The notes beneath the pieces are model-generated. The model had not been told where the DNA came from. It saw nothing but the letters and a program-made list of their open reading frames with translations, and ran no database searches. The position numbers were made by a program, and so were the translations under genes. DNA of 40,720 nucleotides from an uncultured Nitrospiraceae bacterium (GTDB lineage: Bacteria > Nitrospirota > Thermodesulfovibrionia > Thermodesulfovibrionales > Dissulfurispiraceae). Shown piece by piece: positions 12,088 to 32,702 of the stretch. The stretch covers positions 1 to 40,720 of the forward strand of contig CAMTVO010000028.1 in assembly GCA_947085205.1 (NCBI GenBank), in the 5' to 3' direction. The stretch's first letter is position 1. Every line of letters begins with the position of its first letter.

Positions 12088-13476
12088 CTATAAATTTAGA
12101 AAGGGTGAAGGCATAATGCCGATGATAAAGACCATTAGCACAGTTATCAGTATTGCAAGGCCTAATGACGGTGATGGGGTTATTGCTGCCTCCTCTTTCA
12201 TCTCTTTCATGTACATGTTCATTACTACCCTCAGATAGTAGTAAGCGGAGATGGCGCTGAATATTACGGCTATCACAACAAGCCATGTGTATCCTGCATT
12301 TATAACTGCCATAAAGAGGTTGAACTTGCCTATAAATCCTGCTGTGGGAGGTATTCCTGCGAGGGAAAACATAAATACGAGCATTGCCGCCGATATAAAC
12401 GGATGTTTTCTTGTAATACCCTCATAAGACTTTATCTCCTCCTTTTCCAGAAGTATTACCACTGCAAACGCCCCCATGTTCATAAATGCATATATGAGCA
12501 TGTACACCATCATGGCATCCATTCCTTCTTTTGTGCCCGGTATTATTCCCAGCAGCATATACCCTGCATGGGCTATGGATGAATATGCGAGCATTCTCTT
12601 TATGTTTGTCTGCGCCAATGCAAGCATGTTCCCCACCACAATAGTGATTATCGCTATGGCAATGAGTATTGTTCCCCAGTCCATTCTTGCCGAACCCAAT
12701 GCATCAAAAAAGACCCTGCCGAAAGCCGCAAAAGCCGCCGCCTTTGGGCCTATAGACATGAAGGCGGTTATCGGTGTGGGCGCTCCTTCGTACGCATCAG
12801 GGGCCCACATGTGGAATGGAGCCGCTGCTATTTTGAATGAAAAGGCCACTGCCATAGAGATAACGGCAAGCAGCATAACCGGATTTGCAGCAAGGCCGGT
12901 TTTTGCAATGTAATCGGCCACTGCTTTAAGGTTTGTGGTGCCGGTGAGGCCGTATATCATCGCTATGCCATAGAGCAGGATCGCAGTTGCAAATGTCCCT
13001 AAAAGAAAATATTTCAAGGAGGCTTCATTTGATTTCAGGTTGTGCCGCAGAAAACCGGTAAGGACATAAGTGCTCAATGACATGAGTTCGAGTCCAAGAT
13101 ATAGGACTATCAGGTCTCCGGCAGATGCCATGAGCATCATACCGATGGATGCAAGAAGAACAAGGCTGTAATATTCGCCGGAATGCCTCTCATCTACGGC
13201 GCTATAATTTATAGACATCAGGGCAGTCAGGGAAATATTCAGCATGAAAATATACTTGAAAAACATGCCATAGCCGTCGGATATGAACATGCCGTTAAAG
13301 GCGGTTCCTGCGGAGATCGGAATTACATAAGCTGCCGCAGCAGCGCTGAGTATGCTCAAAAAAGCCATAATGCTTTTCTTCTTAACCGCCAATCCTGCCA
13401 AAAAAACAGAGAGTGTAAGAACAGTCATTAGTATTTCAGGGAATAACGGCCCCAGTTCTCTCATCAGTTCAATCAT
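12088..13476 (-). CDS. nuoN: Complex I-like antiporter subunit N
   Basis: LELMSL, EASLKYFLLG, FKIAAAPFHMWAPDAYEGAP, KRMLAYSSIAH, SLAGIPPTAGFIGK. Confidence 0.95.
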   Translation of the reverse strand: MIELMRELGPLFPEILMTVLTLSVFLAGLAVKKKSIMAFLSILSAAAAAYVIPISAGTAFNGMFISDGYGMFFKYIFMLNISLTALMSINYSAVDERHSGEYYSLVLLASIGMMLMASAGDLIVLYLGLELMSLSTYVLTGFLRHNLKSNEASLKYFLLGTFATAILLYGIAMIYGLTGTTNLKAVADYIAKTGLAANPVMLLAVISMAVAFSFKIAAAPFHMWAPDAYEGAPTPITAFMSIGPKAAAFAAFGRVFFDALGSARMDWGTILIAIAIITIVVGNMLALAQTNIKRMLAYSSIAHAGYMLLGIIPGTKEGMDAMMVYMLIYAFMNMGAFAVVILLEKEEIKSYEGITRKHPFISAAMLVFMFSLAGIPPTAGFIGKFNLFMAVINAGYTWLVVIAVIFSAISAYYYLRVVMNMYMKEMKEEAAITPSPSLGLAILITVLMVFIIGIMPSPFLNL

Positions 13477-15005
13477 TTCAGCACCTCGATAATGCCTTTT
13501 ACAGCAGTGATTTCCTGACCGCCTGCACCGAACCTCTCGAGGAGATGCTGAACAGATGCCTGCGTGTAGCTTATAAGCACTGACGGTTGCAATCCCAGAT
13601 AAAAAACAAGGAAAACAAGGGGAACAAGCATTAATACCTCCCTCATGCCCATATCGTGAAGGTGTTCCTTTACCTTCGGATTAACATCAAACAAGAAAAT
13701 CCTGTAATAGAGCCACACCATGTACGCTACACCCAGTATAACCCCTGCGATAGAAACGGCACCCAGAGTCATTCTTACCTTAAACGCGCCGCTCAGGATA
13801 AGAAACTCGCCTATAAAAGAACTCATTCCAGGGAACCCGCTTCCTGCAAGCGCGAAAATGGTAAAAAAGACTGTGAATATCGGCATAGCGCGGGCAAGCC
13901 CTCCGTAGTCTTCAATCCTTCTCGTATGCGTCCTTTCGTATATAACCCCGATGCACATAAAAAGCGCACCTGTGACAATGCCATGACTTATCATCTGGAA
14001 TATCCCGCCCTCCATTCCTGTCCGGTTCAGTGAGAATAAGCCGAGGGTAACAAAGCCCATGTGGCTGACGCTTGAATATGCAATGAGCCTCTTAATATCC
14101 TTCTGCATCAGTGTAACAAAGGCGCCGTATACAATCGCTACGACAGAGAGCACGAGCATCGGCATGAAAAATATCTTTACCGCATCGGGGAACATCGGCA
14201 TCGAAAACCTGAGAAAGCCGTATGCGCCCATCTTAAGAAGTATTCCTGCAAGGATGACGCTTCCTGCCGTGGGCGCCTCTGTATGGGCATCCGGAAGCCA
14301 TGTATGCAGGGGGAACATCGGCACCTTGACTGCAAATGCCATGAAGAATGCCAGGAAAAGCCATATCTGAAGATTCACCGGGTAATGCGTCTTTGCAAGC
14401 GCAAGAATGTCGAATGTCCCGCCTCCGGCATAATAGAGCGCGATTATTCCGACCAGCATCAGGACGCTTCCGGCTAATGTAAAGAGGACAAATTTTATTG
14501 CTGCATATACCCTGTTCGACCCGCCCCAGATGCCTATAAGGAGGAACATCGGTATGAGCATTGCTTCCCATAGGATATAGAAGAGAACCAGATCCATGGC
14601 GGCAAAAACACCGGTCATGGCCATTTCCATTAAAAGGATTGCCGAATAAAACAACTTTATCTTTTCCTGCACAGCCTTCCATGAGACCAAAACGCAGAGC
14701 ACGCCGATTATTGTTGAAAGGAGCACAAATAGAATGCTTATCCCGTCTACACCGACCGCATAATTTAAATTCCATGCCGGTATCCATGGATAACTCTCGA
14801 CAAACTGCATCTTATATGTGGTCTTATCGAAATGTATATAGAGGGGCAATGAAACAACCAATGTTGCAAAGGTGGTTAAAAGGGCAGTCCACCGGATTGC
14901 ATAGGCATTCCTCAGAAGGGATATCAATAATGCCCCCGCCAAAGGAAGGAAAATAGTTATTGAAAGTATAGGGTAGCCGAGCCTGTTAAGTATTATGTCT
15001 TCCAT
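13473..15005 (-). CDS. nuoM: Complex I-like antiporter subunit M
   Basis: VGVDGIS, WEAMLIPM, AVKVPMFPLHTWLPDAHTEAPT, KRLIAYSSVSHMG, FIGEF. Confidence 0.95.
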   Translation of the reverse strand: MEDIILNRLGYPILSITIFLPLAGALLISLLRNAYAIRWTALLTTFATLVVSLPLYIHFDKTTYKMQFVESYPWIPAWNLNYAVGVDGISILFVLLSTIIGVLCVLVSWKAVQEKIKLFYSAILLMEMAMTGVFAAMDLVLFYILWEAMLIPMFLLIGIWGGSNRVYAAIKFVLFTLAGSVLMLVGIIALYYAGGGTFDILALAKTHYPVNLQIWLFLAFFMAFAVKVPMFPLHTWLPDAHTEAPTAGSVILAGILLKMGAYGFLRFSMPMFPDAVKIFFMPMLVLSVVAIVYGAFVTLMQKDIKRLIAYSSVSHMGFVTLGLFSLNRTGMEGGIFQMISHGIVTGALFMCIGVIYERTHTRRIEDYGGLARAMPIFTVFFTIFALAGSGFPGMSSFIGEFLILSGAFKVRMTLGAVSIAGVILGVAYMVWLYYRIFLFDVNPKVKEHLHDMGMREVLMLVPLVFLVFYLGLQPSVLISYTQASVQHLLERFGAGGQEITAVKGIIEVLK

Positions 15006-15014
15006 GTTTTATCC

Positions 15015-16778
15015 TCATAACAGTAGAATCAGTATTACAACTGCACATATCCCCCCACTCATTATAAAGGCGTAGTCGTGAACCTTACCGCTTTGTACAA
15101 TGCGCATGACCGCACTCCATGCGACCGTCAACCTTCCTATACCGTTGACTGCCCCGTCAACTACCTTTATATCAAAGGATCGCAAAATACCTGCAATCTT
15201 CATCACAGGTTTTATCACCATAAATTCGTATGCCTCTCCTACGACATTGTATTCAAATCTTACAATGGGCTTATTTACAAGCCATAAAAATGCCTTTGCC
15301 CCTTTTCTGTAGAACCAGTCCGTGTCGAGGTTGATCGCCCTGATTTCAGCAGGGTATATGCCGGAGAGCATAAGGAGACTAAAGGCCAGCGCTGAAAAGA
15401 ATAAAAGCTGAAGCTGGTCGATAACATGGGCTGCCGTATACGGCACATAATCTACGGGATAGGGGAGAATGGAATAAAGAAACCCTGGAAATACCCCGAT
15501 GAAAATGCACAAAAATGCGGCAATGCCCATGGCGAGAAGCATGTTGATGGGAGGCTCCTTTGTCCTTATACCCGAGTCGTGGGAGAAAAATGCAAAGAAT
15601 GGGATTTTTATTCCTGAATGGTGAAAAACGCCTGCCGAGGCAAACACCAGCGCAAACCATACGGGTATCAGTCCTTCAACACCCGATGCGCTGACGATCA
15701 TCGATTTACTCACAAACCCGTTCGTCAGCGGAAATCCTGAAATGGATGCAGCGCCCACTATGCAGAAAATTGTCGTTAAGGGCATAGTCTTGTATAATCC
15801 GCCCAGATCCGTGGCGTTAATCTTGCCTGTCTGGTGCAGCACTGCGCCCATGGACATAAACAGCAGCGCCTTATATAGGATATGACAGAAGGCATGAGCG
15901 ACCGTACCGTTCAGCGAAAGGGTTGTGCCTATTCCGACTCCCACCACCATAAATCCGACCTGGTTGATAAGGCTATAGGAAAGAACCCTCCTCAGATTGT
16001 TTTCTATGACGGCATAAAAGATGGGAAATGCCGTCATCGTAGCCCCGATCCAGATTAACATCTCTGTGCCCGGGAATCCCCTTGCCAGGACATAAACAGC
16101 CGATTTGGTGGTAAAGGCGCTTAAAAATACCGTGCCTGAAAAAGTCGATTCCGGGTAGGCATCAGGGAGCCATGAATGAAGAATGGGGAAGGCGGCATTT
16201 ATCCCGAATCCTAAAAGTATAAGATATGATGCCGGACCGTCCAGTCCTATGAATGAGAATACAAGGGAGCCTGTATCATGGTAGTGCAAGGTTATTCCTG
16301 CAAGGAGGCAAAGACCTCCGGCAATATGAACCAGCAGATAACGCAGTCCTGCACCCCGGGACGCCTCTGTTTTACTTGCCCATATAAGATAGGCAGCGGA
16401 AAAGGCCATTATCTCCCAGAATAAAAATAGAGTCAAGAAATCCCCTGAAAAGACAACACCCTGGGCGCTTCCGGCATAGATAAAGCCGGCAATGTGCTGC
16501 CCGTCGTCTTTTACCCGAAGGGAGTAAAGAACAGATATGAATGAGACAAGGGCAAAGATATATCCGAATGCCAGGCTGAGCTTATCGACCCTTCCGAAAA
16601 TGAGTTCATACCCCAAAAAATTCACAATCCAATATGTGCCCTCATGCATACTGAGCAGGCTTATGGAGGCAAGGACAGGCAGCAGCAATAAATAGACGGA
16701 TTTCAACCTCCCTCTTAAAAAGAAAATGATAGGCGCGCCGATGATAAAGATTGCGGCAGGCGCAACGGCATTAATCAT
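15015..16778 (-). CDS. MrpD-like antiporter subunit with NuoL-type C-terminal lateral helix (functional NuoL substitute)
   Basis: FWEIM, HSWLPDAYPE, RRVLSYSLINQVG antiporter core. C-terminus DIKVVDGAVNG...VQSGKVHDYA plus a final TM resembles the NuoL tail. Confidence 0.8.
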   Translation of the reverse strand: MINAVAPAAIFIIGAPIIFFLRGRLKSVYLLLLPVLASISLLSMHEGTYWIVNFLGYELIFGRVDKLSLAFGYIFALVSFISVLYSLRVKDDGQHIAGFIYAGSAQGVVFSGDFLTLFLFWEIMAFSAAYLIWASKTEASRGAGLRYLLVHIAGGLCLLAGITLHYHDTGSLVFSFIGLDGPASYLILLGFGINAAFPILHSWLPDAYPESTFSGTVFLSAFTTKSAVYVLARGFPGTEMLIWIGATMTAFPIFYAVIENNLRRVLSYSLINQVGFMVVGVGIGTTLSLNGTVAHAFCHILYKALLFMSMGAVLHQTGKINATDLGGLYKTMPLTTIFCIVGAASISGFPLTNGFVSKSMIVSASGVEGLIPVWFALVFASAGVFHHSGIKIPFFAFFSHDSGIRTKEPPINMLLAMGIAAFLCIFIGVFPGFLYSILPYPVDYVPYTAAHVIDQLQLLFFSALAFSLLMLSGIYPAEIRAINLDTDWFYRKGAKAFLWLVNKPIVRFEYNVVGEAYEFMVIKPVMKIAGILRSFDIKVVDGAVNGIGRLTVAWSAVMRIVQSGKVHDYAFIMSGGICAVVILILLL

Positions 16779-17013
16779 AGTATCCCTCCTTCCTTTTTAT
16801 CAGAGGCCGTAATATGTATTTTGCTGCAAGGACAAGCACTACGCAGGCAACGAATCCAAAGGCGGCATAAAAGGACGGATAACCCTCGAATGCAAAATAT
16901 GGGTGTTTGTGGACAAAAAGGTCGATGACTATAAGCGCTATTAGCGAAGCAAAGAACACCTTCAGAAATTTCTTCAGATTTCCCGGCTTGTCGAAAAAAT
17001 GTTTCTTTTCCAT
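16771..17013 (-). CDS. Small 2-TM membrane protein (80 aa) associated with Mrp-like subunits
   Basis: Two hydrophobic segments, GAGG RBS, overlaps the next start; C-terminal RKEGYYD. Confidence 0.8.
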   Translation of the reverse strand: MEKKHFFDKPGNLKKFLKVFFASLIALIVIDLFVHKHPYFAFEGYPSFYAAFGFVACVVLVLAAKYILRPLIKRKEGYYD

Positions 17014-17023
17014 ATTATTTTCC

Positions 17024-17161
17024 TCAAAGACTTTTTAGAAAAATTACTGCAAGATACAGGATGCCCACTAAAAAGACTATGTAAAACGCTGTTCTGTAAC
17101 CCGAAACAGGCTCATGGCTTAGTTCCATGATCTCCTTTTTTTCTTCCTGTTGTCCAGACAT
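17024..17161 (-). CDS. Unannotated 45-aa single-TM protein
   Basis: Translated by hand: MSGQQEEKKEIMELSHEPVSGYRTAFYIVFLVGILYLAVIFLKSL*; GGAG RBS; fills the operon gap exactly; below the ORF-track length cutoff. Confidence 0.75.
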   Translation of the reverse strand: MSGQQEEKKEIMELSHEPVSGYRTAFYIVFLVGILYLAVIFLKSL

Positions 17162-17173
17162 CTTAAAATCTCC

Positions 17174-18652
17174 TCATTTAACTATCAGATTCGCAAAATT
17201 TATTATAAGATCAGGGTAAAAGCCCAAAATCACGCTTATTACGGCACATAAAAACAAAGGCGCTACCAGCATCGGATTTTCCTTGATCTCTTCGTGATGA
17301 TGATGGTCATCTTCTGCTTTTTCAAAAAATGCCTTATAAACTATCGGCACAAAATAAGAAGCATTGAGCAAGGTGCTTGTAAGCAGCACCATGAGAACCG
17401 TTAGACTCTCCCTTTCCATAGCCCCCACCAGTAGATACCACTTTGTAATAAAACCTCCCGCCGACGGCACGCCGATCATGCCCATAGCGCCGATGGCAAA
17501 GGCAGCCATCGTCCAAGGCATCTTCCTGCCGATACCGCTCAACTGGCTTATTTCGGTCTTATGCGCCGATACATAAAGGGAGCCTGCGCAGAAAAATAGG
17601 GTAATCTTTGCAAAGGCATGGTTGGTTATGTGTATTATCCCGCCGATCATTCCGCTTGTCGTTAAAAGCGCTCCGCCGAGGACAATGTAAGACAATTGAC
17701 TGATTGTAGAGTATGCCAGCCGTGCCTTCAGGTTGTCTCTACTGATGGCAATCACGGATGCCATGACTATGGTGAATGATGCAAAGAAGATCGCATAGTT
17801 ATCGGCGCCGATGTTTTTCAAGAGATCTGTTCCGAAGACAAAAAATATCACCCGCAATACTGAAAAGACGCCGGTCTTCACAACAGCCACTGCATGAAGA
17901 AGGGCGCTGACAGGCGTGGGAGCAACCATTGCTGCAGGGAGCCAGCCGTGCAAAGGCATAACTGCACACTTTGCAAAACCAAAGAGATAAAGAAGAAACA
18001 GCACGCTGATCAGCACAGGATGGGCCGCCTTTACCGCATCAGGGAATAAGCCTCCTTTTGTAAATTCGAGGGTCCCCGCGAGGTTGTAAGTCAAAATAAT
18101 GGCTGCCACAAGAAATGCCTTTGCAGCGCCGAGCAGGTAAATAGCGTATTTCCTCGCTCCCACCTTCGATTCAGGAAGCTTCTTATGGGAAACAAGGGGA
18201 TATGTGATTATTGTCAAACCCTCGTAGAATAAAAACAGCGTAAAGAGATTTGCTGAAAACGCCACCCCCATTGTAGTGGAAAGGGCAATGGCAAAGCATG
18301 AGAAGTATCGTGTCTGGGAGTGTTCGTTAAGGGGCCTCATGTAGCCGATAGAATAAAAGGTCGTCACGATCCAGAGGAAGGAAGCGCCTAATGCAAAGAG
18401 TATTCCAAAGGCATCTGCCCTGAACTTTATATCGATACCCGGCATCAAGTGAAAAAGAGTATACTCTATGGTCTTTCCATCGAGCACAGCAGGAACCATA
18501 GAGGCCACGAGAAGAAATTTCACTACCCCCGCAGCAACGGACCAGAACTCCCTGAGGTTCTGCCTCTTCTGTCCTGTCAGGATAATAAGAAATGTAGCTG
18601 CAACAGAAACCAGTACAGTAAGCAGAGGAATTATAGATGTAATTTTTTCCAT
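17174..18652 (-). CDS. MrpD-family (extra M-like) antiporter subunit
   Basis: FYEGL, AKCAVMPLHGWLPAAMVAPTPVSALLHAVAVVK, KARLAYSTISQL, GFITKW. Confidence 0.88.
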   Translation of the reverse strand: MEKITSIIPLLTVLVSVAATFLIILTGQKRQNLREFWSVAAGVVKFLLVASMVPAVLDGKTIEYTLFHLMPGIDIKFRADAFGILFALGASFLWIVTTFYSIGYMRPLNEHSQTRYFSCFAIALSTTMGVAFSANLFTLFLFYEGLTIITYPLVSHKKLPESKVGARKYAIYLLGAAKAFLVAAIILTYNLAGTLEFTKGGLFPDAVKAAHPVLISVLFLLYLFGFAKCAVMPLHGWLPAAMVAPTPVSALLHAVAVVKTGVFSVLRVIFFVFGTDLLKNIGADNYAIFFASFTIVMASVIAISRDNLKARLAYSTISQLSYIVLGGALLTTSGMIGGIIHITNHAFAKITLFFCAGSLYVSAHKTEISQLSGIGRKMPWTMAAFAIGAMGMIGVPSAGGFITKWYLLVGAMERESLTVLMVLLTSTLLNASYFVPIVYKAFFEKAEDDHHHHEEIKENPMLVAPLFLCAVISVILGFYPDLIINFANLIVK

Positions 18653-18671: not shown

Positions 18672-18980
18672 TTACCCCTTCAAGATATCCATCTCATCCA
18701 TGTGCGGCGTGGGTTTGTTCCTGAAGGCCGCTATCACCAAAGCAAGTCCCACCGCAACACCGGCTCCGGCGCATGCGATTACAAAAAAAACAAGCACCTG
18801 TCCACGCATATCCTGCATATAATGGCTCAGGGCTAACAGGCTTATATTGACGCCGTTGAGCATAAGCTCGATGGACATGAACATCATGATGATGTTTCTC
18901 CTTATGAGAAAGCCGAATACGCCGATTATGAATACGACAGCGCCGAGCATAAGGTACCATGTGAGAGGGACGGGGTTCAT
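18672..18980 (-). CDS. nuoK: Complex I subunit K
   Basis: 102 aa, 3 TM, RRNII...SIELMLNGVN. Confidence 0.93.
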   Translation of the reverse strand: MNPVPLTWYLMLGAVVFIIGVFGFLIRRNIIMMFMSIELMLNGVNISLLALSHYMQDMRGQVLVFFVIACAGAGVAVGLALVIAAFRNKPTPHMDEMDILKG

Positions 18981-19495
18981 GCCTTCCTCCCTTTAACGGC
19001 CAAAACCACCGCAGCAATCATGGGAACAAAGAGCACGAGGGCCAGGATCATAAAGGGGAATACGTATTCGTTAAATAATACCGTTCCCAAAACCTTTGTG
19101 TGGGTTTCGCTCTGTATATATTCGATGGAATATTTTCCATGCGGCGCGATCACGGCATACTGTAAGACAAGCATTATTCCAAGCAGTAATGCTGCTGCTA
19201 CGAAACCCCTCCCCTGCCATGAACTTATAAACCGCCGCCCTTTAAACTCCTCCTTAACATTAAGGAGCAGGACAACAAAAAGGAAAAGCACTAAAATGGC
19301 GCCTGCATAAACTATTATCTGTATAGCTGCGATAAATTCGGCATTCAAAAACAGATAAAGGCCTCCGATATGGACAAAGAGGAGGAGCATCCACATAATG
19401 CCGTGCACCAGGTTTTTCCGCGTTATCGCCAGCAAGGACAGTATGGTTATCATTGCGGCAAAGTACCCAAAAAATAATTTCGGCAGCATATCCAC
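18977..19495 (-). CDS. nuoJ: Complex I subunit J
   Basis: LNAEFIAAIQIIVYAGAILVLFLFVVLLL motif. Confidence 0.93.
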   Translation of the reverse strand: MDMLPKLFFGYFAAMITILSLLAITRKNLVHGIMWMLLLFVHIGGLYLFLNAEFIAAIQIIVYAGAILVLFLFVVLLLNVKEEFKGRRFISSWQGRGFVAAALLLGIMLVLQYAVIAPHGKYSIEYIQSETHTKVLGTVLFNEYVFPFMILALVLFVPMIAAVVLAVKGRKA

Positions 19496-19510
19496 TCCGT
19501 AATATTTACT

Positions 19511-20512
19511 TTACAGCCATCTCTTCACAAAGGCTGTTATTAAAACATTCACGAATGCCAGGGGCATCAGCACCTTCCATCCGATTGCCATGAGCTGATC
19601 ATACCTGTATCTCGGCAATGTCGCCCTTATCCAGTAATAAAAGAACATGAATGCATACACCTTCACGAGAAACCATATAATCCCCGGCACGTATGACAGG
19701 AACGGCATTGCATTTGTCATAAACATGGGAATCGTCCAGCCTCCCAGAAAACAAAGCGCGGCAACGGCGGACATTGTGAGCATCGCGACATACTCGCCGA
19801 GAAAGAAAAATGCGAACCTGAAACCGCTGTATTCGGTGAAATAACCGGCAACCAGTTCCGACTCAGCCTCGGGAAGGTCAAAGGGCGCCCTGTTTGTCTC
19901 GGCAAAGGCGGCAACGACAAATACAAAGAAACCCAGAAACTGGGGGAATGCGAACATGCCCAGAGGATGCTGGTGTTGTGCTCTTACAATATCGGAAAGG
20001 TTCAACGAACCTGCCATAAGCATCACTCCTACCAGGCTAAGTCCCATGGCTATCTCGTAGCTTATTAACTGGGCGGCAGACCTCAATCCCCCCAAGAAAG
20101 AATATTTCGAATTTGACGACCATCCTGCAATCACAATACCGTAAACGCTGAGTGAGGTTATAACGAGCAAAAAAAGTAGTCCGATGTTGATATCCGCAAT
20201 TACAAACCCGTCGAAAAAGGGCAGAACGGAAAGCGCTGTCATTGCCGATATTACGACTATGGCAGGGGCGATATAAAACAATGGCCTGTCTGCACTCGCA
20301 GGGATTATATCCTCCTTAAAAAACAATTTGATCATGTCGGCAACGGGTTGAAGGAGTCCGTGCGGCCCCACCTCCATAGGGCCGTACCGGGCCTGCATCC
20401 GTCCTATTATCTTGCGCTCAAAATAAGTAGCGTATGCCACATGAAAAAGCACGATGCCGAAGACGACAGTTATCTTTATTGCTATTATTGCCAGTGTCAT
20501 TACAAAGTCCAT
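19511..20512 (-). CDS. nuoH: Complex I subunit H
   Basis: ERK...QARYGP, GLLQPVAD, AETNRAPFDLPEAESELVAG, PRYRYDQLM. Confidence 0.96.
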   Translation of the reverse strand: MDFVMTLAIIAIKITVVFGIVLFHVAYATYFERKIIGRMQARYGPMEVGPHGLLQPVADMIKLFFKEDIIPASADRPLFYIAPAIVVISAMTALSVLPFFDGFVIADINIGLLFLLVITSLSVYGIVIAGWSSNSKYSFLGGLRSAAQLISYEIAMGLSLVGVMLMAGSLNLSDIVRAQHQHPLGMFAFPQFLGFFVFVVAAFAETNRAPFDLPEAESELVAGYFTEYSGFRFAFFFLGEYVAMLTMSAVAALCFLGGWTIPMFMTNAMPFLSYVPGIIWFLVKVYAFMFFYYWIRATLPRYRYDQLMAIGWKVLMPLAFVNVLITAFVKRWL

Positions 20513-20515
20513 TTT

Positions 20516-21049
20516 TTATCCCTTCCACTCAAACTGCTTAAAGCGTTCCGCCTTATCGAGGACTTCGACAAATCCCCTCCATTTTTTCTCCGGCCCCTCT
20601 ACGGGGTAGTCTTTTCTGAGCGGGTAACCTTCCCAGTCCTCCGGCATAAGTATCCTTCTTAAATCAGGATGACCGTTGAAAACTATGCCGAACATATCAA
20701 GACATTCCCTTTCATGCCAGTTTGCGCCTTCCCATATGTCCACCACGCTGTCGACAGCGCAGTCCTCTTCAGGCACTTCCGCCTTTATCCTTATCCTATG
20801 TCTGTGATCCATCGAATAGAGGTGATAAACCACTTCGAATCTCGGCTCTTTCCTGCCGAGATAATCCATGCCGCAGAGATCTTCGAGATAGTCGAAGGAC
20901 AGTTCAGGCGTATCGTGGAGGAACTGCATAATCTCAACTATTTTGTCTTTCCTGACAGTTACCGAAACCTGCCCGCGGAATTCGGTTATCCCTTTTACTT
21001 CCAGTGAAAATCTCTCTTTAATAAACTCCGCTATTGCTGTCGGCACCAT
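20516..21049 (-). CDS. nuoC: Complex I subunit C
   Basis: RFEVVYHLYS, ANWHERECLDMFGI, GHPDLRRILMP, PLRKDYP. Confidence 0.95.
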   Translation of the reverse strand: MVPTAIAEFIKERFSLEVKGITEFRGQVSVTVRKDKIVEIMQFLHDTPELSFDYLEDLCGMDYLGRKEPRFEVVYHLYSMDHRHRIRIKAEVPEEDCAVDSVVDIWEGANWHERECLDMFGIVFNGHPDLRRILMPEDWEGYPLRKDYPVEGPEKKWRGFVEVLDKAERFKQFEWKG

Positions 21050-21439
21050 TTATTCCTTTCCTTTATCTTTCCAATCCAATGCGCCCATCTTCCAATCATA
21101 GGCATATCCGATGAAGATGATGAGTATAAATATCACCATTCCCCAAAATCCATAGAGTCCTATATTGCCAAATGCCACGGCCCACGGATACAAAAATGCA
21201 GCCTCGACATCGAAAACAACGAAAAGCATTGCAACGACATAAAACTTTATGGAAAACCTCTCCCGCGGCTCTCCCACAGGAGGATTGCCGGACTCATAGG
21301 ACAAGAGTTTCTCTGAATAAGGCCTTCTCAATTTGAAGATTGCGCCGAGAAGCAGACCTCCCGCTACAAAGGCGGTTGCAGCCATCAGCGTAATAAGAAT
21401 CGGCAGATATGCGGATGGGATATAAGCCCCGGGCATCAT
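21050..21439 (-). CDS. nuoA: Complex I subunit A
   Basis: YESG, KFYVVAMLFVVFDVE, LYPWA, GALDW. Confidence 0.95.
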   Translation of the reverse strand: MMPGAYIPSAYLPILITLMAATAFVAGGLLLGAIFKLRRPYSEKLLSYESGNPPVGEPRERFSIKFYVVAMLFVVFDVEAAFLYPWAVAFGNIGLYGFWGMVIFILIIFIGYAYDWKMGALDWKDKGKE

Positions 21440-22008
21440 AAGGTTACCTTCTCCTCGTGTTTGATAGGAATCGGCTCCTGAAGTCTCTTGCCGACCGGCA
21501 TTCTTTTTATGTCTATGCCTTCGAGTCTCCAGAATTTGTTGAAATATGTATCGGTCTTAAGTCCGGAGGAAAAATCATCCCAATTCTTCAATAACATCTC
21601 CCGGTCGAAAAGAAAGTGCTCGCGGGAGTAATCAGCGTATTCGTACACCTCTGTAAGCACGAGAGCGCACACAGGACACACCTCGGCGCAATACCCGCAG
21701 AAGACACATCTGAGCGCCTCGATCTCATATCTTTCGAGAATCCTTTCTCCCTCTGTTTCTTTATATTCGACCCGTATGCACCGGGATGGACATACTATGG
21801 AACATTTTAAACACGCAACACATTTCTCCCGTCCGGTTTCAGGATCTCTCACAAAGGCATGCCTTCCTCTGAAGCCGGGAAAGGGATCTCTCTTTACTTT
21901 CGGATATCTCCGCGTGACCGGATGGTTTATCATTGTCCTGAAGGTCAAAGCCAATCCCTTCAGGATTTCGAGGAAAAATATTTTCTTAGCAATATCCCTC
22001 AATGTCAT
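21436..22008 (-). CDS. nuoI: Complex I subunit I (2x[4Fe-4S]), C-terminally extended
   Basis: FRGRH, CVACLKCSIVCP and CVFCGYCAEVCP. Start moved to ATG 22008 (GAGGAG RBS, avoids overlap with nuoD). Confidence 0.93.
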   Translation of the reverse strand: MTLRDIAKKIFFLEILKGLALTFRTMINHPVTRRYPKVKRDPFPGFRGRHAFVRDPETGREKCVACLKCSIVCPSRCIRVEYKETEGERILERYEIEALRCVFCGYCAEVCPVCALVLTEVYEYADYSREHFLFDREMLLKNWDDFSSGLKTDTYFNKFWRLEGIDIKRMPVGKRLQEPIPIKHEEKVTL

Positions 22009-22018
22009 GCGGCTCTCC

Positions 22019-23227
22019 TCATCGGTCGCATTCTCCGAGAACAATATCTATGGTTCCTATAAGCGCTATTACATCAGCCACCATATGCCCCTTGCACAAC
22101 CTGGGCAAGGCAGCGGCATGCACAAAGGACGGCGACCTGAACCTCATGCGGTAGGGCATCCCGCTGCCGTCGCTGACTATGTAGAAGCCTAACTCGCCTT
22201 TTGGAACTTCTGTCGGCGAGTAAAATTCACCGGCCGGCGTTATATGTTCGCACTCATCGGATAAAGATATGCATGCGTGGCTGAGAGACATGTCGGGAAT
22301 TAATCTTTTGCGGCCCTCCGGCGGCATATCGAGGTCGGGCGCATCGTCGGCAAGAATAGGTCCATCAGGCATCTTCTCAATGCACTGCCTGATAATACGG
22401 TTTGACTGCCTCAATTCCTCCATCCTGCATCTATACCTGTCGTATACGTCCCCGTTTTCACCTACAGGAACTTCAAAGTCCACAAAAGGATACGCATCAT
22501 AAGGCTCATGCTTTCTGACATCATAAGAAACGCCCGACCCCCTAAGAGTCGGTCCGGTCAATCCGCAATGTACGGCGTCCCTTGCGCTTATCACCCCTAT
22601 CCCTTTTGTCCTCTGAAGCCATATCCTGTTCTGGTCTATAAGCGTTTCGTATTCTTCTATCCTCTTCGGAAATTCCTCTGTGAATTTATATAAACTGTCT
22701 AAAAATTCCCGACTCACATCGCATCTTACTCCGCCTATCCTCGGATAACTCACGGTGAGTCTTGCTCCACAGGTCATTTCGAATAAATCAATCAGCCATT
22801 CCCTTTCTCTGAACGAATAAAGAAATACCGTCATTGCTCCTATATCCAGCGCATGGGTAGCGAGCCATATGATGTGGCTGCTTATTCTCGTCATCTCGGA
22901 CATTATCGTTCTTATGTATTTCGCCCTCTCCGGAGCTTCTATGCCGAATAGCTTTTCCACCGCAACGCAATATCCTACATCGTTGGACATGCTGGATATG
23001 TAATCGAGCCTGTCCATCAAGGGCAGCGCGGAAATGTATGTCCTGTTCTCAGCAAGTTTCTCGGTTCCCCTGTGCAGATAGCCTACATAAGGCGTACACT
23101 TGACTACCGTCTCGCCGTCCAGTTGCAGCACAAGTCTCAACACCCCGTGCGTGGCCGGATGCTGAGGACCCATGTTCAGGGTCAACTCCCTTGTCTGTAG
23201 ATCCTTTTCTATCTCCATCTGCTCCAC
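22019..23227 (-). CDS. nuoD: Complex I subunit D (no NiFe-binding CxxC motifs)
   Basis: [49 protein letters not shown]. Start probably GTG 23227 (or ATG 23218). Confidence 0.94.
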
Positions 23228-23730
23228 TTGAAATATTCTCCCTGTATCTTTTCCTGCAGCTTCATCATGCCGTACATCAATGCCTCCGGTCTCGGCGGGC
23301 AACCGGGGATATAAACATCCACAGGCAGGAAACTATCACACCCCTGTACAACACTGTAGGTGTTATAAATATTCCCGGAACATGCGCAGCTTCCCATAGA
23401 TATTACATACCTCGGTTCAGGCATCTGGTCATAGACTCTACGCACAATGGGCGCCATTTTCATGGTTACTGTCCCGGCAACTATCATAAAGTCTGCCTGC
23501 CTGGGCGAGCCTCTGAAGATTACCCCCAGCCTGTCCAAATCATAATGTGACGATCCCGTCGTCATCATCTCTATGGCGCATCAGGCCAATCCAAAGGTCA
23601 GGGGCCACATTGAAGACTTCCTTCCCCACTTCACTATCCTGTCAATGTTGGTTATGATGGTATTCGCGCCGGGAATTATCTTCAAACCTTCTTCGACTTC
23701 CACAACAGATGTGGTGCCGTCTATGATCAT
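23209..23730 (-). CDS. nuoB: Complex I subunit B, predicted selenoprotein (U50)
   Basis: ATG 23730 with AAGGAGG RBS reads ...[24 protein letters not shown], continuing in frame into the 119-aa ORF ([26 protein letters not shown]); 173 aa total. Confidence 0.92.
23542..23574 (-). promoter_or_regulatory. Putative bacterial SECIS hairpin in nuoB
   Basis: After the UGA: ...ATG-A-TGACGA-CGGGA-TCGTCA-CAT; 6-bp perfect upper stem starting 17 nt after the UGA, G-rich 5-nt loop. Confidence 0.7.
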
Positions 23731-23816
23731 CTGCCCTCACCTCCTTTTCGTTATAGCATCTATTGCGTTATTGGGTTTATAGCACTAAACGCTCAACGCC
23801 ATATCCTTATAACGCT

Positions 23817-24329
23817 TTAGTACAATGCCCCGAATTCAGCAATCTCTTTTGCGAATTTCTCACGCTTCAGCAGAGATGCCTCTGCTGCCGAAACCCATTT
23901 AAGGGAATGGGCTGTGCATTTAGTAACGCACGCAGGCTTCAGTCCCTTATCAACCCTGTCTTTACAGTAGTCGCATTTAATGACCTTTCCTGTCTCGGAA
24001 TTCCATTGCGGGACGCCCCACGGGCATGCTGTAATGCATGACTTGCAACCGACGCACAGAGATTGTTCGACAAAGACGATACCGTCCTTTGACCTTTTCT
24101 GCATTGCGCCTGTAGGACATGCCGATACGCACCACGGCTTTTCGCAGTGAAAGCAGGGCATGAAAATAAACTGCGCCCTCGGGACACCGCCTATCATCTT
24201 CGGTCCGACAGGCATAATCCTGCAAAACCTCGGCCCGACAGGCACATTGTTCTTCGTTTTACAGTGAACCTCGCACGCATAACAACCTATGCATCTTTTT
24301 TGATCCTGATAGATGTAATATATGCTCAT
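23817..24329 (-). CDS. 4x[4Fe-4S] electron-transfer subunit (PsrB/DmsB/NrfC family)
   Basis: CIGCYACEVHC, CFHCEKPWCVSACP, CVGCKSCITACP, KCDYC...PACVTKC. Confidence 0.93.
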   Translation of the reverse strand: MSIYYIYQDQKRCIGCYACEVHCKTKNNVPVGPRFCRIMPVGPKMIGGVPRAQFIFMPCFHCEKPWCVSACPTGAMQKRSKDGIVFVEQSLCVGCKSCITACPWGVPQWNSETGKVIKCDYCKDRVDKGLKPACVTKCTAHSLKWVSAAEASLLKREKFAKEIAEFGALY

Positions 24330-24360: not shown

Positions 24361-26439
24361 TCAGGTCTTCTTAACGCCTACCATACATTCAAGATACGCA
24401 ACACCGCCGCCGACAGGGTCAACCGTTTCGAGCAATCCTATTTCAAGCTTCGTATCGCTTAGCCCCTTTTTATATGACCTTGTCTTAAGTGGTATTTCAC
24501 TGCCGAATCCATGCACCATAAAAATGGCCTCCGGATGTATAAAAGGCGTGACTTTAGCCTTGATCTTTCCGCTGTATCCATTGGAAGATACTTCTACGGT
24601 ATCACCATCCTTTATTCCCAATTCCTTAGCCTCATCCTCGTTTATCCACAGGACATTCTCAGGCATGAGTTCATTCAGATATATATTGTTCTGCGACTGC
24701 GCATGGGCATGGATGGCGCTCCTGCCGAAAGTGAGCCTAAAGGCGCCTTTTTCTGGTTTCTTAGGAGTTGCGTATGATTTAAAAGATTCAAATCCATCTT
24801 TTGCGAGCTCCTGGGAGATAAATTCGATCTTCCCTGAAGGGGTATTGAACTTCAAGTCATTCCTATCCTTAAATATCGGATCCTTTGCAAGGCCTACAGA
24901 ACCTTTGGCGCTGAAATCTTCAATCTTAACGCCTGTGCCTTCAAGCTGATAGTTCCAGATATCCTCAATGCTTTTATACGGGAAATATTCGCCTGCGCCC
25001 ATCTTCTGGGCGAAAAGAGTGAAAATCTCCCATGCAGGTTTGCTGTCATACCTCGGCGGAATGGCCTGCTTTCTCATGATGAAAGAGGGTTTCGGCCCTT
25101 TTGCCGTGCCTATGATATTTGACCTCTCAAGATAAGTGGATTCAGGAAGTATAACATCGGAATACCAGCCTGTCTGGCTGTAGTTCACATCTATGGAAAC
25201 CAACAGATCTAAATTGTCCAGAACCTTTTTCTGAGCTTCCGGGTCGGGGAGCGCGGCTATCGGATCAAAGCGATAGGCGAAGAATGCCTTTATGGGATAA
25301 GGCTCTCCTGTTTTTATCGCCTTATATAAATTTACGAGATGTCCTGTTCCGAATGATCTATCGGGCATGGCCGCATCCACTATCTTATCCTTGACGGCCG
25401 GCATATTTGCACCGAGGGATTTTAGCGGTTTCTTTCCCGCGTCACCCGGTCCTTTTGCGATGATCAAACCGCCCTTTGTTTCAATGTTTCCCATTAAGAC
25501 ATTAAGAATATAGAGGGTTCTGCTGTGATAAAAAGAATCGACGTATCGTGCGAGCATCCATCCGGGATGGAATATTACTTTGGGCTTATCATTGCTTACA
25601 TCACGGGCAAGATTGATAATTTCCTGCGCTGCAATGCCTGTCTCTTTCTCCGCCCACTCCGGTGTATAAGGAATGACAAAGCTCTCAAGCTCTGTCAGAC
25701 CTGTTACATATTTATTCACAAAGTCCACATCGTAGAGCCTTTCTTTCAATATTACATTAATAATGGCCAGGTTGAGCGCATAATCCGTTCCCGGTCTTAT
25801 CATAAGGAATCTGTCGGCCTTCGACGCAGTAACATTTGCCCTGATATCTATATACGTAAGCTTCGCTCCCTTATCCAGGGCATCCAGCATGTTATTCACT
25901 TCCTTAACCTGAAGCGACTCGAGAATATTCCGTCCATAGAGCACTATATGTCTTGCATTCGCAAGGTCATAAATAAACTCGCCACGACCGGCAAATCCAA
26001 AAAGGCTCTTGCATGCCATATCCACATTTTTGCCGCATGTATCGTCATGGCTGAAGTAATTGGGCGAACCCACTGCCTTCAAAAAACTCGTTGTCAGGTC
26101 GGTAAAAGGGCCGCTTCTATCGGAAAGGGCTATGGCCTTGCCGCCGTGTTTCTCGGTTATAGCCTTGAGCTTCCCTGTTATATAATCAAGAGCTTCGTCC
26201 CATGTCGTCTTCTTCCATTTCCCCGAGCCCCTTTCACCATCCCTTATCATCGGATATTGAGGACGCTCCGTGTCGTATTCAAAGGCAAGACCTGCAGACC
26301 CCTTTGCGCAGAGGCTTCCTTCCAGCCCTGGCTCGTGGGGATTGCCCTCAATCCACTTAACAACGCCGTCCTCTACCTCTACTTTTATAGAGCAGCGGAC
26401 AGCGCACATGCCGCACATGCTATATACAATTTCTCCCAT
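24361..26439 (-). CDS. Mo/W-bisPGD oxidoreductase catalytic subunit, PsrA/PhsA (polysulfide/thiosulfate reductase)-like, no Tat signal
   Basis: FS0 motif CGMCAVRC...LCAKG begins at residue 9 with no twin-Arg leader; HDDTC Cys ligand region; PGTDYA, DVILPESTYLER, TPSGKIE, C-terminal molydop-binding domain. Confidence 0.88.
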   Translation of the reverse strand: MGEIVYSMCGMCAVRCSIKVEVEDGVVKWIEGNPHEPGLEGSLCAKGSAGLAFEYDTERPQYPMIRDGERGSGKWKKTTWDEALDYITGKLKAITEKHGGKAIALSDRSGPFTDLTTSFLKAVGSPNYFSHDDTCGKNVDMACKSLFGFAGRGEFIYDLANARHIVLYGRNILESLQVKEVNNMLDALDKGAKLTYIDIRANVTASKADRFLMIRPGTDYALNLAIINVILKERLYDVDFVNKYVTGLTELESFVIPYTPEWAEKETGIAAQEIINLARDVSNDKPKVIFHPGWMLARYVDSFYHSRTLYILNVLMGNIETKGGLIIAKGPGDAGKKPLKSLGANMPAVKDKIVDAAMPDRSFGTGHLVNLYKAIKTGEPYPIKAFFAYRFDPIAALPDPEAQKKVLDNLDLLVSIDVNYSQTGWYSDVILPESTYLERSNIIGTAKGPKPSFIMRKQAIPPRYDSKPAWEIFTLFAQKMGAGEYFPYKSIEDIWNYQLEGTGVKIEDFSAKGSVGLAKDPIFKDRNDLKFNTPSGKIEFISQELAKDGFESFKSYATPKKPEKGAFRLTFGRSAIHAHAQSQNNIYLNELMPENVLWINEDEAKELGIKDGDTVEVSSNGYSGKIKAKVTPFIHPEAIFMVHGFGSEIPLKTRSYKKGLSDTKLEIGLLETVDPVGGGVAYLECMVGVKKT

Positions 26440-26555: not shown

Positions 26556-27395
26556 TTACCATGTCCCTATTGCCTTAGCTGCTTCTCTCATTATGTCATA
26601 TTCCTTATCCACGACCGGAACAAATCCCTCTATCCTTGCAGGTCCTAATATTGAGATGGCCTTAAGGTCGCCTTTTTTGAGTTTTAATAATGTGTCCTTT
26701 AGTTTTTTAGCGATTGCAGGGTCCATCTTCTTTGATATGGCTATTGGCCAGTTAGGTATCGGGTCGCTGACTGCTACCTTGCGAAACTTTTCGCCGCCTG
26801 CCTTTAATTTCTCTACATCGTCATCCCTTACAAACCCTGCCTCTGCCTTTCCAGCGAGCATAGCATCAGCAACAGGGTCGCGCTTTTTCTCAAAAATGAC
26901 CTTCACATCGCCTTTCTTCAACCCTGCCTTGCTTAGCATCTTCATCTGGACAAGGTAGGCGCCTGCAGAGCCGGGGTCGGTAGCAGCAATTGTCTTGCCT
27001 TTGAGTTCGGTTATGCTTTTGATAGGGCTGTCTTTTTTAACTATTATCGTTCCCTTTATATCATCGCCAATCTCAGGCTCTGAGGCTATGACGAGAGGCT
27101 CTGTTTCTGGAACAGCTTTCTTCAGTAAAACATAGAGGTAGGGATTTGTGTAGACAAAATCATAGGCCTTTGCCTCTGCCTCTTTCCTCCATGTGTCAAA
27201 GTCCTTTGGTATCACGAGAACAACCTTTACTCCCAGTTCTTTACTAAGGTGCTCAGCAAGTGGTGTAAAGCCATCCCTCATCTCCTTTTCTGAAAGCCTC
27301 GGGAGAACCCCGAACTTCAACTCCGCTGCAATAGCGCCAAAAGGCAGCGCCAATAATGCAATCAAAACAACCAACAACATCTTCTTCTTACCCAT
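26556..27395 (-). CDS. PhnD/phosphonate-binding-family periplasmic binding protein (no cognate ABC permease nearby)
   Basis: Signal peptide, LKFGVLP, DFVYTNPYLYV, SITELKGKTIAATDPGSAGAYL, PIPNWPI. Confidence 0.85.
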   Translation of the reverse strand: MGKKKMLLVVLIALLALPFGAIAAELKFGVLPRLSEKEMRDGFTPLAEHLSKELGVKVVLVIPKDFDTWRKEAEAKAYDFVYTNPYLYVLLKKAVPETEPLVIASEPEIGDDIKGTIIVKKDSPIKSITELKGKTIAATDPGSAGAYLVQMKMLSKAGLKKGDVKVIFEKKRDPVADAMLAGKAEAGFVRDDDVEKLKAGGEKFRKVAVSDPIPNWPIAISKKMDPAIAKKLKDTLLKLKKGDLKAISILGPARIEGFVPVVDKEYDIMREAAKAIGTW

Positions 27396-27423
27396 AGCTT
27401 CCCTCCTTTTTATTTTTATTTGT

Positions 27424-27825
27424 TTATTTTGGCGTGGGTATTACGCCGAGGAGCATCAGCCCCAATATTGCAAGCCCTGTTACAGCTACCCTTTTTACCC
27501 ATTGAGGGTTTAACCTCTTTGATATCTGTGGACCAAGATAACCTCCAATTATTGCTCCAACAGCCATAAATCCAAAGAGGAGAAAATCCACATTGCCAAA
27601 GCCAACCACTCTGGAGGTTGCCATCGCTGTATTAAAGAATATGGCCAAAAGGGAGCTTCCCACAACAACATACATTGGAAGACCCATTAAAACGGTCATT
27701 AAAGGCACCATAAAAGGGCCGCCTCCAAAACCGAACATACTGGACATTATGGCTATCAAAAAGCCGCCTGTGCAACCAACGATCATATTTGCCTTGAATT
27801 CTTGACCCCAAAATTCTATCTTCAT
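27424..27825 (-). CDS. TauE/SafE sulfite-exporter family, half-size (133 aa)
   Basis: SSMFGFGGGPFMVP, VVGSSL, GGYLGP motifs. Start at ATG 27825 (MKIEFWG) with GGAGG RBS. Confidence 0.85.
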   Translation of the reverse strand: MKIEFWGQEFKANMIVGCTGGFLIAIMSSMFGFGGGPFMVPLMTVLMGLPMYVVVGSSLLAIFFNTAMATSRVVGFGNVDFLLFGFMAVGAIIGGYLGPQISKRLNPQWVKRVAVTGLAILGLMLLGVIPTPK

Positions 27826-27847
27826 AATATTCCTCCTTCTTATTATT

Positions 27848-29038
27848 CTACTTTTCTGCCTTCTTTGCGGCTGCCTCTTCAGCCCTCTTCTTAAATTCCT
27901 TAAGAATGGCCTGTTCTTTCTTGTTTTTCGAAATATATCCAGGAGTCGTCTGCCACAGCATGATAGCAGCAAGGATTAACAGTACCCAGCCAAAAAGGAA
28001 TTTATACTGGTCAAGGGTTATCATTTCTGTTAGTTTAGGACCGATAAAGCCGCCAACTAACATTGCCAGGCCAACCCCCACACCCAATTTCCAGTTAATG
28101 AACTTTATCTTGCTGTAATTATATATCCCAGAGCCCTGGCTGAAAAGCACGCTCGGAAGGACAGAGCCTGCGACAACAGCATGGGGTATTCCATAGATAA
28201 ATATCAGAAGCGGGTTAAGAATAAAGCCCCCGCCTGCACCCATAGTAACGCCAAATGTGCATACGGCTACAGCGAGGAAAAAAGGCCCTAGTATATTCAG
28301 GCTCTGGCCTGCCCTATCAAAATACAGTTTCCCAAAAGACAGGTCGTGCTTAAATGTTGTAGGCGCACTTTTTAGATCCTTATCTACAACAGCAGTAATC
28401 ATATAAGATCCGCTCGGGGCGTTATCAGGCAACTTGTATTCGGCTTCGAATCTTCCATCCTCATTTATTTTTATTGTTGGGCTGAACATCCTTTCGGGCC
28501 ACCTGTACCTCGCCTTCATAAGAGGCATTGACTGCCTCCTGTTGCCTTTTTCATCCATTGCCTCGAGTTGATCACCCCTCGAACCCAATATAGTGGCTAA
28601 AATGGATGCCTGCCACCTGTCCACCATGGCTTTTGCAGGAGTTAGGTAAGCAGCATCCGCGCCGGTTGTTGTGAGCATTCTGCTTACGCTCCAGTCTTTG
28701 CCTTTTGCCTTTTCTATCTTGTATGCCTCCTCAACCTCTTTCGGCATAAGCATCATATAGAGTGCAGGAATATTTTTGCTTAAATAGAATATATACGGTA
28801 TCTTCCCTGTATCAGGGTCCCGCTTGCTATCGAGTCTCGCAACCTGCACTGTTTTCTCAGAGACTATTTCAATATAAACAGGCCTTCCGGCAGGGGCTGT
28901 TCCATTTATCTTAATGATCTCTCCTCCTTTGTATTCAGGCTTATCCAGCGACAACATTACCTGTTCAGCAGGCTGTGCCGCAAAGGCCATCCCTGAGGCA
29001 ATGATGATAAAAGCAAATACTAAAATATAGTTTTTCAT
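27848..29038 (-). CDS. Secreted N-terminal domain fused to a half TauE/SafE domain
   Basis: Signal peptide, ~225-aa soluble region, then MGAGGGFILNP...GSVL...GGFIGP TauE half. Confidence 0.82.
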   Translation of the reverse strand: MKNYILVFAFIIIASGMAFAAQPAEQVMLSLDKPEYKGGEIIKINGTAPAGRPVYIEIVSEKTVQVARLDSKRDPDTGKIPYIFYLSKNIPALYMMLMPKEVEEAYKIEKAKGKDWSVSRMLTTTGADAAYLTPAKAMVDRWQASILATILGSRGDQLEAMDEKGNRRQSMPLMKARYRWPERMFSPTIKINEDGRFEAEYKLPDNAPSGSYMITAVVDKDLKSAPTTFKHDLSFGKLYFDRAGQSLNILGPFFLAVAVCTFGVTMGAGGGFILNPLLIFIYGIPHAVVAGSVLPSVLFSQGSGIYNYSKIKFINWKLGVGVGLAMLVGGFIGPKLTEMITLDQYKFLFGWVLLILAAIMLWQTTPGYISKNKKEQAILKEFKKRAEEAAAKKAEK

Positions 29039-29054
29039 ATCCTCTCCTCCCTCC

Positions 29055-29471
29055 TTATCTTACGACCAGCACCGAGCATGGTGCATTGGCAGCAACCCTT
29101 GAGGACACGCTTCCAAGCACTGTCCTTTCTGTTGCGTGTTTTCCTGTTGAACCGACCACTACTAAATCCATACCCATACCCTTTGCATGGTCAACGATAA
29201 CATCCACAGGATTTCCTTCAAGGATAATTGTTTCCGCCTCTATCCCCTTTTCCCCAAGCATCTCTTTGACGCCCTCCATTGCGCCCTCGATTTCGGCCCT
29301 ATAAAGTTTTGTTATCGTATCGCAGTCAGCGCCTATCTCTGAAAAACAGAGGTTGGGAACCACGGATACAACGGTCAGCTTCGACCCGAACTTCTGGGCT
29401 ATGGATGCTGCCTCCAATATGGCCTTGTCGGCAGCGTCAGACCCGTCGTGTGCCACTAAAATCTTCTTCAT
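29055..29471 (-). CDS. Universal stress protein (UspA family)
   Basis: KKILVAHDGS, DLVVVGSTG, LGSVSSRVAANAPCSVLVVR. Confidence 0.95.
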   Translation of the reverse strand: MKKILVAHDGSDAADKAILEAASIAQKFGSKLTVVSVVPNLCFSEIGADCDTITKLYRAEIEGAMEGVKEMLGEKGIEAETIILEGNPVDVIVDHAKGMGMDLVVVGSTGKHATERTVLGSVSSRVAANAPCSVLVVR

Positions 29472-31072: not shown

Positions 31073-31073
31073 A

Positions 31074-32699: not shown

Positions 32700-32702
32700 A
32701 TA

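Follow-up and report, generated by a model that had tools for sequence, protein, structure and literature searches.

The DNA analysed here, referred to as the window, is a stretch of 40,720 nucleotides (contig CAMTVO010000028.1) from an uncultured Nitrospiraceae bacterium whose genome is designated G000. On its minus strand lies nuoB (23209..23730), which encodes a 173-aa protein when an in-frame TGA (23581..23583, minus strand) is read through as a predicted selenocysteine (Sec). In agreement with the original prediction, this TGA was the only one in the 522-nt open reading frame 23730-23209, where it forms codon 50 at the first Cys position of the tandem pair and gives the product FGLA-U-CAIEMM. 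The strong ribosome binding site proposed upstream of ATG 23730 was likewise located, as the RBS-like sequence AAAAGGAGGTGA (23735..23746, minus strand) just upstream of the start codon, recognised from its sequence. The remainder of the gene was as intact as had been claimed. Three of the four ligands of the Fe-S cluster N2 are kept as cysteines (C51, C115 and C144), the set being complete only if Sec is inserted at the TGA (U50), and the read-through protein passed the NCBIfam NuoB cut-offs, scoring 244 bits against TIGR01957 (cut-off 142.7) and 252 bits against PRK06411 (cut-off 116) in profile searches computed with C substituted for U. It resembles the NuoB/Nqo6/NDUFS7 (PSST) family (PF01058, TIGR01957) in its full-length match and in its neighbours nuoD, nuoI, nuoC and nuoH, and most of its length can be aligned with PSST/NDUFS7/Nqo6 chains of known structure, Yarrowia C85, C86, C150 and C180 corresponding to U50, C51, C115 and C144 of the window protein. 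It differs from these relatives in that two solved-structure alignments have Cys-Cys, whereas the window gene has a TGA and a predicted SECIS element. As was also foreseen, gene callers shorten the gene: each of the 13 proteins in its 90% cluster has a length of 109-119 aa and starts 3′ of the TGA, and two of the four N2 ligands are lost from these public calls. Extra cysteines are present near the third ligand (residues 115-117, GSCAC) and at Cys131; Cys117 was found in 60/88 Sec rows and 42/44 Cys rows of the NuoB alignment. The column that best separates Sec from Cys rows is Arg98 (86/88 versus 26/44, uncorrected for kinship).

Downstream of nuoB on the same strand are nuoD (22019..23218, minus strand; above the TIGR01962 cut-off), whose likely ATG at 23218 lies inside the end of nuoB, so that the two genes share 10 nt, then nuoI, nuoA, nuoC, nuoH, nuoJ and nuoK (18672..22044, minus strand), giving the gene order B-D-I-A-C-H-J-K, and an antiporter-like set (12088..18652, minus strand) made up of an MrpD-like gene of 492 aa, an 80-aa ORF, a second MrpD-like gene of 587 aa, nuoM and nuoN. 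The partner subunits of NuoB in the operon are NuoD and the membrane subunits A, H, J, K, M and N. Upstream are a DmsB/PhsB-like subunit with four Fe-S clusters (23817..24329, minus strand), predicted to act as an electron wire replacing NuoEFG, a molybdopterin oxidoreductase (24361..26439, minus strand), and genes for a substrate-binding protein, a split TauE/SafE exporter and a universal stress protein (26556..29471, minus strand) that accompany the Mo module in related loci; the operon reads usp, split tauE, binding protein, Mo-oxidoreductase, Fe-S subunit and nuoB onward. The genes nuoL, nuoE, nuoF and nuoG were not found in this operon, which thus does not encode a canonical 14-subunit NADH:quinone oxidoreductase. 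The best match of the Mo enzyme is PhsA (E 1e-158), although the score of 529.6 bits against the PhsA profile is below the cut-off of 694. With this sub-cut-off score, no twin-arginine (Tat) motif in the enzyme and no membrane-anchor (PhsC) gene in the operon, its identification as the periplasmic thiosulfate reductase PhsABC is not supported. As it lacks a twin-arginine signal, the Mo enzyme is likely cytoplasmic, and we infer that it and the Fe-S subunit form a cytoplasmic sulfur-oxyanion module standing in for NuoEFG. A layout with a PhsAB-like Mo module, the order B-D-I-A-C and four antiporter-like subunits but no NuoL was seen at about ten loci, with either Cys or Sec NuoB. Like the window operon, the complex I of Thermosulfurimonas dismutans comprises NuoA-D and H-N without an NADH module (excerpts of PMC4911364); the window operon is unlike it in the PhsAB-like Mo module upstream, the B-D-I-A-C order and the two MrpD-like genes in place of nuoL.

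In the window NuoD, the His, the Tyr and both Arg residues of the quinone site are conserved, the C-terminus is GECDR and no NiFe ligands are present. Its redox-Bohr His, a neighbour of N2 (mouse H223, mature H190), is replaced by Thr (GARLTVSY), a residue that occupies this position in 77/78 Sec-linked and 40/40 Cys-linked NuoD proteins (117/118); through this replacement, the pH-dependent potential of N2 may have been lost clade-wide. Further upstream of the Mo module, the region 29714-34400 encodes a sigma-54 response regulator, a histidine kinase and a tandem substrate-binding protein, the binding domains of which show weak similarity to the tetrathionate sensor TtrS, and this system is possibly a sulfur-oxyanion sensor for the operon. 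At two other loci (L250 and L255), a histidine kinase and several response regulators split the nuo operons between nuoD/E and nuoF. Near the right window end lies a gene (38384-39682) which, from its translation, we take to encode an integron-type tyrosine integrase.

Bacterial SECIS elements lie just 3′ of the UGA and carry a G early in the apical loop. A SECIS-like hairpin had been predicted to begin 17 nt 3′ of the TGA, and it is found there on the minus strand, at 23564-23548 (feature 23548..23564; TGACGA-CGGGA-TCGTCA), with a 6-bp stem and a loop, CGGGA, that starts 22 nt after the UGA. The G-bearing loop 22 nt downstream of the UGA and the locked synonymous sites described below agree with the consensus. 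An Rfam scan of the window returned no RNA element except a 16S rRNA fragment, the 5′ part of the gene at the left window end (1-258). The folding energy of the hairpin is not unusual (z = -0.5, with 52/200 shuffles of the 48-nt region as stable), and support for it therefore comes from conservation. In a comparison of 65 close nuoB genes, all six pairs of the stem are present in 19/23 genes with TGA versus 2/42 with Cys, and among those encoding the identical peptide TTGSS in 17/17 versus 2/17, counts which come from related rather than independent sequences, so that Fisher p-values overstate them. In a larger set, the third codon positions of T-T-G-S-S have an entropy of 0-0.5 bits where the gene has TGA (46 genes) and of 1.2-1.9 bits where it has Cys (17 genes), and codons upstream in the same 46 TGA genes vary by up to 2.0 bits. 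As these synonymous sites are locked in the TGA genes only, they point to a UGA-linked selection that acts on the RNA. The best-conserved 30-nt block between the two nuoB paralogues of the genome (28/30) coincides with the first half of the hairpin. Other clades have different hairpins at the same position after the TGA, and a G at loop position 1 or 2 of the best hairpin was present in 101/114 TGA sequences versus 12/40 Cys sequences. A minority of TGA genes, on the scale of 24 loci, had weak or different hairpins; in 12 AVYASHN genes the fold reaches only -4.9 kcal/mol, yet the codons are almost fully locked. Two Cys-coding nuoB genes (L142 in G005 and L149 in G036) have kept the complete hairpin, which suggests a recent Sec-to-Cys reversion.

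The original prediction had called for homologues in which TGA alternates with TGY at this codon, and this was what was observed: the 65 close NuoB genes, drawn from 61 genomes that belong to the family and order of G000, comprised 23 with TGA (in 21 genomes, G000 included) and 42 with TGC or TGT. When 185,579 species genomes were scanned for the exact pattern, 114 matches were obtained, of which 112 were NuoB with TGA at the first Cys, a lower bound owing to the strict pattern and one to which a few genomes contribute two loci. By NCBI phylum label, these belong to Nitrospirota (74), Thermodesulfobacteriota (17), Myxococcota (9, titled Deltaproteobacteria), Planctomycetota (4), Chloroflexota (3) and three singletons, with two carrying no label. 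As a control, the pattern was rerun with the TGA moved to the second Cys and gave 6 matches, only 3 of them NuoB. One Nitrospirae nuoB (L290; JAPLLK010000064.1, 3001-3027, minus strand) has the order Cys-TGA and the same hairpin, 14 nt after the UGA, in a genome with both selA and selB, and Sec may here have shifted to the second tandem ligand. A Tectomicrobia locus (L293) is also Cys-TGA, with an open frame and selB present. When 1/64 of the collection was scanned, no TGA was found at codon 50 (the NuoB-like genes having 81 TGY and 1 GGA), so the trait is rare overall, and a loose pattern applied to 6/64 parts of the collection gave no NuoB with TGA at the fourth ligand in 120 loci. Among the 120 best full-length homologues in the database, U does not occur and 118 have CC, and one database protein with Cys-Cys is 94% identical to the window NuoB. 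Cys orthologues close to Sec-NuoB occur in genomes with Sec machinery. The nearest named NuoB (L209, 99%) belongs to a Nitrospirae MAG, and the genome has dsrA. For a small subunit of the hydrogenase type with about 40% identity to NuoB (L137; G008:C1:608642-608980), one TGA was reported inside its match.

The genome also encodes the machinery for Sec. The gene selB, for the Sec-specific elongation factor, lies within the same window, as had been reported (4117..6000, minus strand; above the TIGR00475 cut-off), and the search for the remaining genes was equally positive, with selA on contig C30, tRNA-Sec (selC) on C59 and selD on C19. The selD gene carries an in-frame TGA of its own. A loose scan of G000 gave 62 TGA candidates, mostly noise; those recognised by motif we take to be a DsbC-like UxxC protein, FdhA, YeeE, a multiheme cytochrome and a rhodanese (contigs C2, C22, C38, C46 and C19, SelD included). 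Similar G-rich loops about 17-23 nt after the UGA were seen in the other selenoprotein candidates of G000. Sec machinery is nearly universal in the order (selA in 59/61 genomes, selB in 60/61), and the co-occurrence of selA and selB there is therefore not discriminating; among the distant TGA genomes tested, selB was found in 21/22 and selA in 19/22.

The reading of the TGA as a genuine stop, whether through a nonsense mutation, a pseudogene or an assembly error, is effectively refuted. G000 (1.89 Mb, 89.7% complete) has two nuoB genes with a TGA in both, and no Cys-coding copy was found in the genome at this level of completeness. The second gene (G000:C59:36976-36458) has the same TGA codon and sits within an intact nuoA-N operon including NuoE, F, G and NuoL. 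The paralogues share 79.7% DNA identity, 61/146 same-residue codons differ synonymously, and both nuo operons are otherwise intact. A sequencing error, raised from the outset as a possible explanation, is contradicted by the identical TGA in this diverged paralogue and by a 248-nt contig from a different study that matches 23427-23674 without a difference; at 23581-23583, no alternative letter occurred among the matches listed in four more runs, this support for the TGA letters coming from assembled contigs (run X5 for the 248-nt match). A related contig from a single RNA run spans the TGA, although a contig cannot show transcription. Isolated cases of this kind do exist, such as an assembly of Ca. 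Udaeobacter (L225) without selA and selB, which may reflect a nonsense mutation or an assembly fault, and a nuoB (L291) with another stop 38 codons further on. The check for a pseudogene was negative for the gene studied here, and against a stop stands a codon common to two diverged paralogues and 112 loci, with open frames downstream of the TGA, conserved Cys ligands and locked synonymous sites. It is also highly improbable that the UGA is decoded as Trp or Cys by way of an altered code or a suppressor. Unusual tRNAs are known to read UGA as Cys; in the genome, no sign supporting such a reading was found. TGA terminates 229/797 ORFs of at least 300 codons in G000, the sole UCA-anticodon tRNA is called as tRNA-Sec, the homologues alternate with Cys codons only and never with Trp, and a SECIS-type constraint lies 3′ of the codon.

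The operons around Sec-NuoB were compared across 88 TGA rows, selected by pattern, and 44 Cys rows, mostly from one order. The former comprised 48 NuoEFG operons, 15 of the MoOR-FeS-nuoA-N type, 5 of the Mo/Mrp type seen in the window, 10 EFG-less operons and 10 without type; the latter were distributed over the same classes as 17, 0, 5, 19 and 3. As it occurs in NuoEFG, Mo-linked and EFG-less operons, Sec-NuoB is not tied to one electron donor or input module. A quick NuoB tree, from which 13 duplicate rows had been dropped, required at least 19 changes between U and C, 6 of them forced by strongly supported branches. In the NuoH tree, the ten Mo/Mrp operons form one clade (support 98). The window NuoB shares 81-87% of its residues with canonical NuoBs and 65-74% with those of seven other Mo/Mrp operons, its SECIS is of the canonical-operon type, and the window NuoC and NuoD are also closer to the canonical type by identity. 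Monophyly of the Mo/Mrp nuoB genes was rejected on DNA in AU tests excluding the Sec codon and SECIS (p = 0.017 and 0.020), with three rows of odd base composition and a hypothesis set after the first tree had been inspected, and was not rejected on protein (p = 0.115). The window nuoB was therefore likely acquired by replacement from a canonical operon.

The TGA of nuoB is very probably a programmed Sec codon, with a selenolate predicted to replace the first tandem thiolate at N2. SelB with Sec-tRNA would bind the hairpin 17-33 nt 3′ of the UGA and insert Sec at codon 50, an insertion that we regard as almost certain from the sequence evidence, and by analogy with the aligned Cys of solved structures, it is to be expected with high confidence that Sec50 ligates the [4Fe-4S] cluster N2, the terminal cluster, which is predicted to hand electrons to quinone. 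If selenium is lacking, translation would end at codon 50, leaving both complexes of the genome without NuoB, and, as the likely nuoD start overlaps the nuoB stop, an undecoded UGA would probably also lower the translation of nuoD. N2 is bound by four NuoB cysteines including a strained tandem pair, and in a destabilised Yarrowia mutant this pair detaches, the first Cys being the most mobile (excerpts of PMC8042128); a redox-linked change of ligation at N2 has been proposed but is unverified (excerpts of PMC4893023). Sec has a pKa of 5.2 compared with 8.3 for Cys, and once oxidised it is easier to recover by reduction (excerpts of PMC10779653). Given the lower pKa, the easier re-reduction and the strain in the tandem pair, the function that we tentatively prefer for the selenolate is to stabilise an N2 ligand: the one under the greatest strain, and also the most mobile, would be less prone to become protonated, come loose or be irreversibly oxidised, and the potential might shift slightly too. 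This role is ranked above tuning of the potential, and that in turn above a near-neutral exchange. Since Cys orthologues persist alongside, Sec at N2 would be an optional upgrade, and since no N2-neighbouring NuoD column separates Sec from Cys rows and the potential of N2 can be altered with little functional loss (excerpts of PMC8042128 and PMC4893023), its benefit may be small.

It is conceivable, if rather unlikely, that Sec binds N2 chiefly to retune its midpoint potential, so as to suit a quinone of low potential or electron flow in reverse. The N2 potential is species-dependent and may be adapted to menaquinone (excerpts of PMC4893023), the redox-Bohr His is missing throughout the clade, and all 15 MoOR-FeS-nuoA-N loci in the tree set have TGA, a uniformity that is a sampling effect, as these loci were gathered by the TGA pattern. 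Such tuning is at odds with the spread of Sec over three kinds of operon in the 88 TGA rows, namely the NADH type (48), the Mo-linked type (20) and the EFG-less type (10), and with Cys orthologues within each Nitrospirota architecture. With three input architectures and close Cys orthologues in genomes with Sec machinery, a link between Sec and the direction of electron flow, as was first envisaged, is weakened; the selenolate may still tune the N2 potential. We think it improbable that Sec is inserted but nearly neutral, with Cys and Sec interchanging in selenium-using anaerobes and the SECIS kept only for the UGA. Near-neutrality fits the number of U/C changes on the quick NuoB tree, including the forced ones, the two Cys genes that retain a full hairpin, as expected after recent reversion, and the Cys-Cys pair of the 94% identical database protein. 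It accords less well with the confinement of TGA to the first Cys (112 versus 3), with the several distinct hairpins that serve one site, and with a window operon that seemingly took its nuoB from the canonical Sec-bearing type (rejection on DNA, not on protein).

Sec is known to ligate an Fe-S cluster in HdrA and MvhD. Together with the Fe-S cluster and 2Fe-2S proteins that have UxxC, CU or GxUC motifs, the bacterial and archaeal selenoproteins HdrA (CxxU) and MvhD/VhuD (CxxU) share with Sec-NuoB a UGA at a Cys-homologous site in an anaerobe redox complex (excerpts of PMC13188914), but they have other folds, none is a subunit of the complex I quinone module, and the window NuoB instead has a U-C tandem pair. 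The catalogued selenoprotein 'NADH:ubiquinone oxidoreductase subunit E' points by its name to a respiratory NADH oxidoreductase, as does Sec-NuoB, but is given in the catalogue excerpts as PF02508, without motif or accession, a different family from PF01058 (PMC13188914). In [NiFeSe] hydrogenases, which belong to the hydrogenase/complex I superfamily, Sec likewise stands in for a Cys that binds metal, and resistance to oxidation has been proposed as its role (excerpts of PMC13188914); there, however, it binds Ni in the large subunit, the NuoD homologue, whereas here the small-subunit homologue and an Fe-S cluster are concerned. Within the accessible part of the 2026 catalogue (PMC13188914), NuoB/PF01058 is absent from the 119 prokaryotic selenoprotein families of Table 1. 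There was no Sec-specific model among the 12 NCBIfam matches and no mention of NADH, Nuo or quinone in the main texts of BSepDB, deep-Sep and SelCysML, and no Sec-NuoB or Sec-NDUFS7 was found in the literature searched, which comprised listings and the starts of abstracts, subscription papers lying outside it. Nuo proteins including NuoB have been detected in Dissulfuribacter (excerpts of PMC13490349), and neither selenium nor selenocysteine is mentioned in the accessible parts of this text or of that on Thermosulfurimonas (PMC4911364). Sec-NuoB is a real, widely conserved and apparently uncatalogued selenoprotein variant of complex I NuoB.

The ligands of N2 rank among the most conserved residues in bioenergetics, and the role in energy coupling of a redox-linked change in their binding has been described as unverified (excerpts of PMC4893023). 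Where the first tandem ligand is naturally Sec and orthologues 80-94% identical have Cys instead, N2 ligation can be studied directly; Se EXAFS, 77Se EPR and Sec/Cys swaps are suited approaches, and a cultured carrier of Sec-NuoB exists in Thermodesulfatator autotrophicus S606 (L241). If our reading is true, it would provide a built-in selenium probe for the detachment of an N2 ligand during catalysis. The finding also adds a selenoprotein family beyond the 2026 catalogue and corrects the annotation of public NuoB calls shortened at the TGA. In its widest form, to which we give an even chance, the interpretation is that the complex I of many sulfur-cycling anaerobes is a selenoenzyme with a selenolate at N2, gained or regained repeatedly with different SECIS elements, copied into a Mo-driven complex with four antiporters by nuoB replacement, and with its N2 chemistry changed enough for selection to act. 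For the groundwater and vent bacteria that carry it, respiration is likely selenium-dependent.
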